Shown piece by piece: positions 16,370 through 19,754 of a stretch of DNA of 64,000 bases; the stretch's first letter is position 1; each line of letters begins with the position of its first letter. Source of the DNA: Arcobacteraceae bacterium (lineage in GTDB: Bacteria > Campylobacterota > Campylobacteria > Campylobacterales > Arcobacteraceae); contig JBLWVX010000003.1 of the NCBI GenBank assembly GCA_048268245.1, forward strand, positions 32,001-96,000. The letters are read 5' to 3'. Below the pieces are notes generated by a model. The model saw only the letters and a program-made list of their open reading frames with translations, was not told where the DNA came from and made no database searches. Both the position numbers and the translations under genes were made by a program.

Positions 16370-16391
16370 TTTATATCTTTTTAAAGGGCAT

Positions 16392-16428
16392 AAAAAAAGG
16401 AAAGAAGTTTAACTTCTTTCCTTTTTTT
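16392..16428. terminator. Bidirectional intrinsic terminator
   Basis: aaaaaaaggaaagaagtt-t-aacttctttccttttttt between convergent genes, with A-tract and T-tract flanks. Confidence 0.85.
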
Positions 16429-16770
16429 TTATAAAAATTTTTCTTTATATTCCTCTTCATTAAAACCAACAACTACATCATCACTTAGTTCAACTATAGG
16501 TCTTTTTAAAAGCATTGGCTCTTTACATAGCCACTCAAACTTACCTTGTTCATCAAGATTAAGCTCTTTTAACTTTAAACTTCTATATTTAGTTCCTCTA
16601 CTATTGAAAACTAAATCAATACCCGCTTTTTCAATCCAAAACTCGATAGAAGTTGAAGTAGGTGTTTCTTTTTTAGTATCAAAGAATTCTACTTCTATAT
16701 TGTTGTCCTTAAAAAACCTTAAGGCTTTTCTAACAGAGTTTCAGGTTTTAATTCCATAAACCTTAAACAT
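16429..16770 (-). CDS. ArsC/YffB/Spx-family thioredoxin-fold protein, probable selenoprotein (Sec at codon 10); absent from ORF track
   Basis: Manual translation MFKVYGIKT[TGA]NSVRKALRFFKDNNIEVEFFD...FNSRGTKYRSL...PMLLKRPIV...VVGFNEEEYKEKFL* (113 aa). AAGGA RBS; TGA (16741-16743) falls at the family Cys of YGIKxC. Confidence 0.88.
16701..16735 (-). promoter_or_regulatory. Putative bacterial SECIS hairpin
   Basis: mRNA UGA-aacucUGUUagaaaagCCUUAA-gguuuu-UUAAGGacAACA: 6-bp upper stem, G-starting apical loop 22 nt after UGA, 4-bp lower stem. Confidence 0.7.
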
Positions 16771-16787
16771 TGTTTTCCTTTTATTTA

Positions 16788-17078
16788 CTACTCAATAATC
16801 TTTGGAACTTTAAAGTATCCATCTTCTGACTCAGGAGCATTTTTTAAAATATGATTAGATAACTCTAAATCTTGTTTTGCAACATCTTCTCTTAAAGGTG
16901 TTCCACCTTCAACAGTGCTAAATGTAGCTTCAATTTTTGATACATCAATTTCATTTAAATTTTCAACAAAGTTAATAATATCAGCTAGTTCAGATTTTAA
17001 GTTCTCTTTTCTTGACTCATCAATCTCTAAACTAGAAAGTCTTGATAATTTCTCAATTAGTTTATCATCTACAGTCAT
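16788..17078 (-). CDS. gatC: Asp/Glu-tRNA amidotransferase subunit C
   Basis: L.RLSSL, L..II.FVE.L.E.D, LREDV, NAP...DGYFKVPKIIE. Confidence 0.96.
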   Translation of the reverse strand: MTVDDKLIEKLSRLSSLEIDESRKENLKSELADIINFVENLNEIDVSKIEATFSTVEGGTPLREDVAKQDLELSNHILKNAPESEDGYFKVPKIIE

Positions 17079-17299
17079 AGTTTTCCTTATTCTTGTATAT
17101 AAAGGCGATTATATCTAAAAAGAGTTTGTAGAGGCTTTAAAGAGTAGTTATGAAAGATATATAGCTAAAATACAATAATTTTGATGATAATAAATAATAA
17201 AGTTATAAAAGTTATTTATTTAATTGTAAATAATACTTTTATGATACTTTTAAGTAATACTTAAGAATATATGTGTAACAATTACAGTAACGACATATA

Positions 17300-17454: not shown

Positions 17455-17649
17455 ATGTTAGATTTCTTAAAAAGAAGATTAAAAAGTGAAAAAGGTGCAA
17501 TGGATAAAATTCTTGTAACTTTATTATTAGTTATTGTTGGTGTTGGAGCAGTTGTTGGTTTAAATACTTGGGTTGATGGTGAAAAAACAAAAGTTGAAAC
17601 AGCAGCTACAAATAAAATCACTGAAGTAACTGGTTCTACTTCTGAGTAG
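17455..17649 (+). CDS. Flp-like major pilin (non-canonical N-terminus)
   Basis: 64 aa; basic leader ending EKG, hydrophobic helix ILVTLLLVIVGVGAVVGL; AAGGAG RBS; first gene of the Tad locus. Confidence 0.85.
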   Translation: MLDFLKRRLKSEKGAMDKILVTLLLVIVGVGAVVGLNTWVDGEKTKVETAATNKITEVTGSTSE

Positions 17650-17685
17650 TATTAAGTTAAAAGGCTTATGCCTTTTACTTAATAC
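17649..17685 (+). terminator. Strong stem-loop between pilin and prepilin peptidase genes
   Basis: gtattaagt-t-aaaaggc-ttat-gcctttt-acttaatac, 16 bp with one bulge. Confidence 0.7.
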
Positions 17686-17699
17686 ATGAAAAGACAAAT

Positions 17700-18128
17700 G
17701 TGTTTACAATAATCTTTTATATATTTTCTACAGTTTTATCTTATACTGACTTCAAAAAATACTTAGTACCAAATAATATTTTACTTACTATGGCAATAAT
17801 GCTTTTAATATTTGGCTTTTTTGAATCGAAAATATATATAAGTTCTATTGTTTTATCTTTAGGTGTTCTTCTTTTTTTCATTATTCTTATGCTTATAAAT
17901 AGACAAATGATACTTGGTGGTGGAGATATAAAGTATATGATGCTTGTAGCACTATTTTTAGGACTAAAACCATTTGCTATTTTTTTGATAGTTACAGGTC
18001 TTCTTCAAAGCATAGTTTTATTATTTATGCAAAAAATAAGAAAAAGAAGAGTAGCTGCTATGGTACCAGTTATGTTTGTTTCTGTTATAATAGTAGATAT
18101 ATTAAATTATTTGAATATATTTTTGTAA
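17700..18128 (+). CDS. A24 prepilin peptidase, TadV/CpaA type (no methyltransferase domain)
   Basis: Catalytic Asp motifs YTDFKKYLVPN and GGGDIK; multiple TM helices; GTG start. Confidence 0.9.
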   Translation: MFTIIFYIFSTVLSYTDFKKYLVPNNILLTMAIMLLIFGFFESKIYISSIVLSLGVLLFFIILMLINRQMILGGGDIKYMMLVALFLGLKPFAIFLIVTGLLQSIVLLFMQKIRKRRVAAMVPVMFVSVIIVDILNYLNIFL

Positions 18129-18164
18129 AGAATATAATCTTCAAAGATAAGGTTAGGAAGAAAT

Positions 18165-19754
18165 ATGACATTAGATGATTTTAAAGATAAACTTGATTCA
18201 AATAAAGAGAATAGTATTTTAAATACGCAAATCCAAGAGGCTTTAGAACTATTTGCTGATCTTGCAAACCTAGATGATATTTCGTATTATAAGTATGAGT
18301 ATGAATATAATAATTTCTTTCATAAATTAACTATTGATAAAGATGGAAATAGACTTGAAGAAAAAAGTCATAATGAACAAAAATACAGAATAACATTGAG
18401 AAAAAATAAACTTGTATATGGATATATATCTATTAATAAGCGAATAAAATCAACTTCTATTGTAAAAAAAATTCTAAATAAACTAATAAAATATCTAGAT
18501 AAGCAAAAAGAATTAGAAAAAAAACTTTTAGGTTCTGATGTATCTTTTAATATATATTTATTTCATGATGATACTTTAGATATGTTTGCCCAAAATCTAA
18601 AAGGTGGACTAGAAGGTCTTTTTAATGTTGATGTAATTGTAGATAATTCAATTGAAAAACATATATCTTCTATTCGAAGTAAAGAGACTAAGCATATAAT
18701 TGTTTATTTAATTGATGATGAAAGAAATATCAAGAAGTATGAATCTGTAATTAAGTCATTAAATGAATTAATAATAGTTTTAGGTCCAAATGACCATAAA
18801 ATATCTATGTATTGTGGGAAACTAGGAATTCAGAACTATATTTCTATAAATGAATTTAAAGCAGAAACAATAAAAGAAATAATTCTAAATACAAGAAATG
18901 AACTTCTAAATAAAAATAAATATGGGAATAAAATTATAGCTTTAAGTGGTATTTCAGGAGGTATAGGAACTACTACTATTGGTATGAATATGTCTGATTT
19001 ACTATCACAAAATTTACCTGATAAGAATATTTTATATATTGATTTATCAACTACAAAAGCTGTTAGCAATCTATTTTTACAAAAAAATCCACTTCCTAAT
19101 AAAACTATTGTTGATTTGATTAATACAAGTGAATTTCACTTGGAAAATAATCTTCAAAATGGTTTATGTAAAGTTCGTGAAAACTTTTATTGTATTACAG
19201 GAATTCAAAAACATATAGATAAAGAGTACATAGAAAAAGATGTATTTATTAGTAAACTTTTAGAGTATGTATCAAATTCAAGTGATTATTTTAATTTTAT
19301 AATTATAGATTTAGGTTTAGCAGATGCTTCAAATCTAAAGACAACTATATATGATATTGTAAATGAAATCTGGCTTTTAACAGAAATGAATCTTCCTCAT
19401 ATTTCAAAAGTAAAAACATTTTATTCTTTAATGAAAAGAGCAGGGTTAAAGGAGAAAATATCTTTTATTGTAAACAGATATGATTCTCAAAATGCAATTT
19501 CAGTGAATGATGTAACTTCAATTTTAAATATGACAAGTGGGGACAAAATACAATTTGATAATTATAAAATCCCAAATGATTATAAAACTTTAGGTAAATG
19601 TTGGAATTACTGTGAGTTAGCAAGTGTAAGTGATAAAGACTCACTATTTATAGAGAAACTTGAAGATATTTTGAAGAAAAAAGAGTTTTATCAAAGTGAA
19701 GATAAAAAAAGAAAAGAAGGATTCTTTTCATCTTTATTTAAAAAGAGTAAATAA
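18165..19754 (+). CDS. TadZ/CpaE-like protein with extra N-terminal domain
   Basis: C-terminal MinD/ParA fold (IIALSGISGGIGTTT, LYIDL, FIIIDLG, IVNRYD, IPND); central degenerate receiver-like region; directly upstream of the ATPase. Confidence 0.82.
   Translation: MTLDDFKDKLDSNKENSILNTQIQEALELFADLANLDDISYYKYEYEYNNFFHKLTIDKDGNRLEEKSHNEQKYRITLRKNKLVYGYISINKRIKSTSIVKKILNKLIKYLDKQKELEKKLLGSDVSFNIYLFHDDTLDMFAQNLKGGLEGLFNVDVIVDNSIEKHISSIRSKETKHIIVYLIDDERNIKKYESVIKSLNELIIVLGPNDHKISMYCGKLGIQNYISINEFKAETIKEIILNTRNELLNKNKYGNKIIALSGISGGIGTTTIGMNMSDLLSQNLPDKNILYIDLSTTKAVSNLFLQKNPLPNKTIVDLINTSEFHLENNLQNGLCKVRENFYCITGIQKHIDKEYIEKDVFISKLLEYVSNSSDYFNFIIIDLGLADASNLKTTIYDIVNEIWLLTEMNLPHISKVKTFYSLMKRAGLKEKISFIVNRYDSQNAISVNDVTSILNMTSGDKIQFDNYKIPNDYKTLGKCWNYCELASVSDKDSLFIEKLEDILKKKEFYQSEDKKRKEGFFSSLFKKSK

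Follow-up and report, generated by a model that had tools for sequence, protein, structure and literature searches.

A YffB-like gene of Arcobacteraceae with an in-frame UGA predicted to encode selenocysteine and a covarying candidate SECIS hairpin

Does a single in-frame TGA near the start of a small gene mark a dead reading frame, or is it read as selenocysteine (Sec)? The question is raised by a locus in a stretch of 64,000 nucleotides from an Arcobacteraceae bacterium (Campylobacterota; contig JBLWVX010000003.1 of assembly GCA_048268245.1), referred to below as the window. The original prediction, made from the letters of the window alone, held that a minus-strand frame of this locus is a hidden selenoprotein gene of the ArsC/YffB type, in which UGA takes the place of the catalytic Cys codon and is followed by a SECIS-like hairpin. 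The comparative analyses presented here indicate that this is very probably so: the gene would be a genuine selenoprotein gene, with UGA codon 10 as the predicted Sec codon followed by a credible, covarying SECIS element.

The frame begins with ATG at 16770, ends with TAA at 16431–16429 of the minus strand and contains 113 sense codons (Table 1). It had been described as complete with ribosome-binding site, start, stop and terminator, and all these elements were recovered; its sole interruption is the TGA at codon 10, in the context YGIKT-U-NSVRKA. The terminator, a 17-bp hairpin followed by U's, is located 3' of the stop codon. It was not detected by a simple pattern scan because its stem extends into A/U tracts, but was recovered by folding, and none of 200 shuffles equalled its stability. 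The gene is present in a single copy in the genome from which the window derives (one match). Its ATG is separated from the stop codon of gatC by 17 nt, and in 84 of 86 orthologous loci the gene is likewise directly preceded by the 3' end of gatC. Among the Sec forms described below, the distance to gatC does not exceed 19 nt in 29 of 31 cases and is approximately 120 nt in the remaining two. Both the neighbourhood and the shared transcript had been proposed earlier; the former is a conserved feature of the locus, and the two genes are probably co-transcribed. Beyond gatC, the plus strand carries three ORFs of 64, 142 and 529 aa (17455–19754 of the window). The first encodes a hydrophobic pilin-like N-terminus and the second a membrane protein, and by eye only these ORFs resemble a Flp/Tad-type pilus cluster.

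Table 1. Features of the YffB-like locus; positions are those of the window.
Feature	Position	Strand	Basis or remark
Coding sequence of the predicted 113-residue ArsC/YffB-like selenoprotein, TAA stop included	16429..16770	(-)	PF03960, TIGR01617, AlphaFold model
UGA codon 10, predicted selenocysteine	16741..16743	(-)	Aligned to Cys of 2m46, 1rw1 and 2kok; TGA in relatives
Ribosome-binding site AAGGA	16776..16780	(-)	Direct reading of the sequence; 5 nt ahead of ATG
Intrinsic terminator, hairpin and U run	16392..16428	(-)	-19.3 kcal/mol, z -7.03
gatC, upstream gene	16788..17078	(-)	PF02686, 4.2e-19; probably same transcript
SECIS upper hairpin (candidate)	16707..16724	(-)	98.2% of cells paired; two compensatory pairs; 25/5000 recodings as stable
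Possible lower stem, 5' arm UGUU	16732..16735	(-)	93.8% paired, no covariation; weak
Possible lower stem, 3' arm AACA	16701..16704	(-)	The C of this arm ends codon 23

The encoded protein belongs to the ArsC/Spx thioredoxin-fold superfamily and is YffB-like. Membership of the superfamily follows from the match to PF03960 (7.1e-19; 68.3 bits versus a gathering threshold of 24), and it also exceeded the cut-off of TIGR01617, arsC_related (92.9 versus 75.05 bits). The more specific models all remained below their cut-offs: the YffB equivalog NF008107 (65.9 versus 121 bits), TIGR00014 for ArsC with UxxS (42.7 versus 106.05), NF041106 with UxxC (30 versus 85; the residue at +3 is Val), and the Spx models NF002459 (33.1 versus 123) and NF009210 (28.1 versus 159), there being no CXXC in the protein (U-N-S-V). 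Solved relatives were found by sequence in 2m46 (1.2e-17), 1rw1 (9.9e-14) and 2kok (3.1e-13). The UGA is aligned to the Cys of each of them, YffB (1rw1) included, which bears out the claim that it occupies the conserved Cys position. An AlphaFold model built from 28 sequences (pLDDT 89.6, pTM 0.81) points to the same family: the top fold match is YffB 1rw1 (TM 0.90, E 1.7e-9), and those listed among the 24 PDB matches at E ≤ 0.001 are all ArsC, Spx or YffB proteins. In this model, residue 10 opens the helix 11–22, which follows the strand 2–6. No Cys is found at +3 and Cys 82 is variable among the Sec forms, so the chemistry must rest on one selenol.

The original prediction implied a machinery for Sec insertion, and the genome, 99.3% complete, carries all four genes: selC, selA, selB and selD were each found above the curated cut-off. 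The tRNA-Sec reached 48.6 bits, above the Rfam cut-off, and was called SeC with the anticodon tca by ARAGORN; the scores of selA, selB and selD were 571, 293 and 356 bits, respectively. An in-frame TGA is also present in the genome's own selD and fdhA (the latter encoding the formate dehydrogenase alpha subunit). All Sec genes of this genome lie inside approximately 24 kb of one contig. This selenium gene island (contig C15 of G000, ~8.9–32.5 kb; L001, L009, L010, L018 and L109) contains fdhA with its in-frame TGA, selD with the TGA in the context KAAG-U-AAKMG, tRNA-Sec, selA and selB.

In the family as a whole, 28 of the 31 genomes with the TGA have selA, versus 80 of the 153 other genomes. 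The three exceptions (G057, G147 and G173) yielded no selA, selB, selD or tRNA-Sec above the cut-off, and pending closed genomes they count against the selenoprotein reading. Their assemblies consist of 200–250 contigs each, with completeness of 94, 74 and 90%, respectively. Since the Sec genes are clustered in the genome of the window, one lost contig could hide all of them.

The distribution of the in-frame TGA was analysed in a set of 184 family genomes, 170 of which contain an ortholog (match at E ≤ 1e-10). The census of in-frame stops covered the 150 matches listed of 198 and revealed, among these, at least 31 genomes from 11 genera with exactly one in-frame TGA; the remaining listed matches had no in-frame stop, save one late TAA. 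The latter belongs to a Cys form (L068 in G092:C2), in which the TAA is located near codon 104, some 10 codons before the usual end; this form is a truncated variant or else a gene in decay. The 86 orthologs fetched comprise 31 Sec forms and 55 Cys forms. TGA occupies codon 10 in 30 of the Sec forms and codon 11 in one (G161), while the Cys forms have TGT (45) or TGC (10) at codon 10, and the nine codons 5' of the TGA are conserved at the protein level in both classes. Hence the TGA is not private to this assembly but alternates with TGT/TGC across the family, as would be expected from the original prediction. The form with TGA at codon 11 (L060 in G161:C13, at a contig end) reads TGC-TGA (K-S-C-U-G-V) where its relatives have TGA-GGA-AGT (K-S-U-G-S-V), and thus contains a vicinal Cys-Sec pair; the hairpin lies 3 nt nearer to the UGA, the frame and the hairpin are intact, and G161 has selA.

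An order-wide sample of 251 genomes gave matches in 144 genomes outside the family. None of the other-family matches listed (20 further matches lie outside the list) had an in-frame stop, which suggests that the Sec form arose inside Arcobacteraceae. Inside the family it is widespread but patchy.

Contigs assembled in three other studies (X3, X9 and X15) also contain the locus, and the TGA is identical in all of them. All 901 bases are found in one piece in X3, with seven substitutions and an insertion, whereas X9 covers the stretch with several pieces, one of which runs across the TGA. The third, X15, comes from a metatranscriptome library; it is a contig of 300 nt that corresponds to 16621–16920, from the end of gatC through the TGA and the hairpin, and has one difference, at 16788. 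Parts of the gene are covered by contigs from RNA libraries. The hint that such contigs give of co-transcription with gatC is weak, because contigs show presence only and not transcription. In public protein collections, Sec forms appear with position 10 given as W (P0002–P0008, P0013, P0026, P0041 and P0057), devoid of name or accession, and a cluster look-up of these W-bearing proteins returned no public name and no accession. They look like gene calls made on short contigs under the code in which TGA is Trp (code 4).

The candidate SECIS element, announced as a hairpin CCUUAA-GGUUUU-UUAAGG with a G-first loop 17 nt after the UGA, was found exactly so at 16724–16707. It can be drawn with six pairs and the loop GGUUUU, or with seven pairs (CCUUAAG/UUUAAGG) and the loop GUUU. 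The onset lies 17 nt past the UGA, or 14 nt in one variant and 18 nt in another, and a G is present at the junction of stem and loop in all 31 Sec forms. Covariation was assessed by aligning the 31 Sec forms (24 distinct sequences) without gaps; in this alignment the seven-pair helix is almost completely paired (Table 1). None of 500 column shuffles matched the covariation score, and sliding the partner by 1–3 columns brought the pairing down to 39–61%. The compensatory changes that the original prediction led one to look for among relatives occur at two pairs: at pair 27-42, 21 distinct sequences have CG and 3 have UA, and at pair 30-39, 19 have AU and 4 have GC. All of them are synonymous (GCC/GCT with AAG/AAA; TTA/TTG with TTT/TTC), and they appear in differing combinations, in at least two lineages each. 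The lone row with a broken pair belongs to G102 and is mis-registered. In this Sec form (L035), codons 15–18 have undergone a compensated 1-nt shift that turns the peptide KALR into NSLK, and the hairpin CCUUAA/UUAAGG is kept, with a 5-nt loop and an onset 18 nt after the UGA.

The comparison of the two classes and the choice of codons also bear on the hairpin. All seven pairs are formed in 30 of 31 Sec forms, the hairpin of G102 being present but shifted by 1 nt, versus 17 of 55 Cys forms, and on average the hairpin is more stable in Sec forms (-5.4 kcal/mol) than in Cys forms (-2.0 kcal/mol). The 25 equally stable hairpins among 5000 synonymous recodings were obtained with the codon usage of the window, for which 37 of its long ORFs served as the reference. 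By this reference the codons of the arms are rare: GCC accounts for 58 of 917 Ala codons, AGG for 31 of 437 Arg codons and AAG for 188 of 1436 Lys codons. Codon 16 is GCC in 21 of 25 distinct Sec forms versus 12 of 55 Cys forms, and codon 21 is AAG in 21 of 25 versus 7 of 53. For the additional lower stem UGUU/AACA, the proposal stood in part: the arms can pair, but they do not covary, and this extension of the hairpin is weakly supported. All 23 distinct Sec forms compared have AAC as codon 23, whose third base falls in the 3' arm of this stem, versus 21 of 47 Cys forms.

Other properties of the hairpin are less telling or point the other way. Folded in isolation, the 71-nt segment reaches -5.3 kcal/mol with a z-score of -0.15, and 73 of 200 dinucleotide shuffles fold equally well. 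The peptide L-[KRS]-F-F-K is palindromic in DNA, and 1159 of 5000 synonymous recodings retain all seven pairs. The synonymous diversity of the Sec forms is 0.51 bits in the hairpin zone, 0.60 bits downstream and 0.42 bits upstream; as there is no clear dip in the hairpin zone, synonymous diversity was not counted as support. The hairpins of selD and fdhA have G-first loops (GGG and GGGGU) that start 18–19 nt after the UGA, and the loop of the YffB-like gene starts 23 nt after it, which is 3–5 nt further. An Rfam scan of 16380–17100 (E ≤ 10) found no SECIS family, and the only matches were chance ones on the terminator. An 8-bp hairpin, GAAAAGCC/GGUUUUUU, was also considered and was rejected because it shows no covariation and is broken in 10 of the 24 distinct sequences; among the 31 Sec forms, 18 have it as their minimum-free-energy fold.

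Some Cys forms contain the full Sec-type hairpin, including its G-C pairs. They are L025 (G002) and L069, L072, L074, L076 and L078 (g21), and all are close kin of Sec forms, G002 belonging to the same genus and the other five being g21 genomes. Such an exact hairpin kept in Cys kin of Sec forms fits fossil SECIS elements, and these genes are probably recent reversions from Sec to Cys. SECIS remnants of this kind are described in the accessible part of PMC1794560. A different case is that of the g2 Cys forms L081, L082, L086, L090 and L106, which carry CUUUGAAAUUUUUCAAAG, a seven-pair hairpin in the same register with an energy of -5.5 kcal/mol and a G-C pair (TTG with TTC). Either this is a SECIS fossil of greater age, or it indicates that the hairpin has another use.

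How else could the locus be explained? If the TGA were a recent nonsense mutation or a sequencing error, translation would end after nine residues and the gene would be a pseudogene. Standard gene callers would indeed stop at the TGA, and the premature late TAA of G092 indicates that decay does occur in this gene. A pseudogene is nonetheless barely credible when the TGA stands at the same codon in 30 genomes from 11 genera, in frames that are intact and conserved on both sides of it, recurs in the contigs of three other studies, and interrupts the only copy of the gene in a genome that possesses the Sec machinery. Only slightly less improbable is that the codon is decoded without Sec, i.e., that UGA is read through as near-cognate Trp or Cys, that TGA means Trp, or that termination prevails and leaves a regulated variant of low output. 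The public proteins with W at position 10 would agree with such decoding, and so would the three TGA-bearing assemblies without detectable Sec genes. However, the W calls come without the name of a source and resemble guesses made under code 4 on short contigs, and the three assemblies are fragmented to a degree at which one missing contig could hide the clustered Sec genes. Moreover, the residue is Cys in 55 of 55 fetched non-TGA orthologs and in the solved relatives, 28 of the 31 TGA forms occur in genomes with selA, and plain read-through needs no covarying hairpin.

The last alternative accepts Sec at codon 10 but regards the hairpin as a by-product of the encoded peptide, the true SelB signal being another nearby structure. 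To this reading we likewise assign a very small probability. The low stability of the hairpin, its presence in 17 of 55 Cys forms, the prevalence of GAAAAGCC/GGUUUUUU as the minimum-free-energy fold and the distance from the UGA, larger than in selD and fdhA, speak for this alternative. A by-product would hardly account for compensatory synonymous changes at two pairs, for rare G/C-ending codons on both arms, or for the retention of the hairpin across the local frameshift in G102; in addition, the alternative fold lacks covariation and is broken in 10 of the 24 distinct sequences, and where Cys forms retain the exact hairpin they are closely related to Sec forms, as fossils would be. Recoding of the UGA as Sec, which the original prediction preferred to a pseudogene, is thus the reading supported by the machinery, the conserved TGA, the alternation of Sec and Cys, and the covariation of the hairpin.

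Under this preferred reading, the events at the locus may be outlined as follows. The gene would be transcribed together with gatC, and SelB-GTP carrying Sec-tRNASec would sit on the hairpin 17–34 nt downstream of the UGA, so that at codon 10 Sec would be delivered instead of release factor 2 terminating translation. The product would be a mono-selenol reductase acting on some thiol or oxyanion substrate, with the predicted selenocysteine as the single nucleophilic residue at the start of helix 1, and its recycling would probably depend on thioredoxin or another thiol, not on glutathione.

Precedents for ArsC-type selenoproteins, to which the original prediction appealed, do exist. As far as the accessible parts of the papers go, ArsC-like selenoproteins were reported in 2006 (PMC1794560), 'ArsC 1' (pfam03960, UxxS) and 'ArsC 2' (UxxC) were distinguished in ocean metagenomes (PMC2398784), and a 2026 review lists an 'arsenate reductase' family (TIGR00014, UxxS) and an 'arsenate reductase-like' family (NF041106, UxxC) (PMC13188914). 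The accessible part of this review does not mention TIGR01617, Spx, YffB or Arcobacter. With the 'arsenate reductase' family ('ArsC 1'), the Arcobacteraceae protein shares the PF03960 fold and Sec at the catalytic Cys position; unlike that family, it has U-x-S-V and not UxxS, and the structures of E. coli ArsC match it at a TM of 0.73. The 'arsenate reductase-like' proteins (NF041106 ArsC_rel_Se_1, 'ArsC 2') are likewise small, of the ArsC/Spx fold, with an N-terminal Sec, and are usually truncated by gene callers. Since there is no Cys at +3, the U-x-x-C redox pair of the NF041106 family is absent from the protein described here. The RNA-polymerase-binding regulators Spx and MgsR are also related, in that TIGR01617 is passed and Spx structures match at a TM of 0.72–0.81; unlike Spx, the protein is without CXXC, fails the Spx-specific models, and matches Spx chains by sequence with an E-value of 2e-4. 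It fits neither of the catalogued ArsC selenoprotein models and is a YffB-type case.

Equal in length and closest in fold are the YffB proteins (PA3664, PDB 1rw1; Brucella YffB, 2kok; the ArsC-YffB subfamily). The motif GX3(C/U)X3(K/R) with one nucleophile is common to YffB and the Arcobacteraceae protein, a motif of this type being described for YffB in the accessible part of PMC3169414. The differences lie in Sec instead of Cys, an identity of approximately 28%, and the failure to pass NF008107. According to the same part of that paper, YffB proteins are proposed, not demonstrated, to be glutathione-dependent thiol reductases. In contrast to the proposed use of glutathione by YffB, the Arcobacteraceae genome has no match to gshA, and its best match to gshB reaches 70 bits versus a cut-off of 299; with no canonical gshA/gshB, recycling would therefore more likely involve thioredoxin or another thiol than glutathione. 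In the literature on selenoproteins of Arcobacter and Campylobacterota, no description of the protein was found. Arcobacter genomes were among those scanned by the authors of BSepDB.

The history of the gene can be read in outline. The Sec form looks derived from a Cys ancestor within the family, and some lineages look to have gone back to Cys with a fossil hairpin. The best tree of the 86 proteins contains eight changes between Sec and Cys, of which well-supported branches force only one. In this tree, the g2, g3 and g16 Sec forms, together with two from g21, cluster with the Sec forms of g1 and g10, with low support in this short protein. These Sec forms, which group outside their own genus, are L036 (G022, g2), L033 (G057, g3), L054 (G147, g16), and L028 and L029 (both g21). 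One explanation could be that the gene was laterally replaced at the gatC locus, another that contigs were mis-binned; two of the genomes concerned, G057 and G147, are also without Sec genes above the cut-off. Tentatively, and with less than even confidence, one may go further and regard the protein as a third, YffB-type branch of ArsC-superfamily selenoproteins, which was derived from a Cys form in Arcobacteraceae and experienced repeated reversion to Cys, with fossil SECIS elements left behind, and moves between genera by replacement at the gatC locus; the grouping of Sec forms across genera speaks for this view. Were this true, the locus would offer a compact natural system for studying the birth of a SECIS element inside a coding sequence.

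Gene callers truncate the gene at codon 10 or render the UGA as Trp, and in 31 or more species of Arcobacteraceae a conserved gene therefore carries a wrongly annotated active site. With the 31 Sec and 55 Cys orthologs, a data set both small and clean is at hand for following how a SECIS element is fitted into a coding sequence and how it decays there, with compensatory synonymous changes, a preserved hairpin in a shifted frame and fossil hairpins among its members. A form with Sec at this position speaks for the conserved residue of YffB as a true redox nucleophile. For the bacteria themselves, the predicted protein would add a redox selenoprotein to a group in which the Epsilonproteobacteria selenoproteome study, in its accessible part, listed only Fdh, SelD, SelW, thioredoxin and a thiol peroxidase (PMC4607533).
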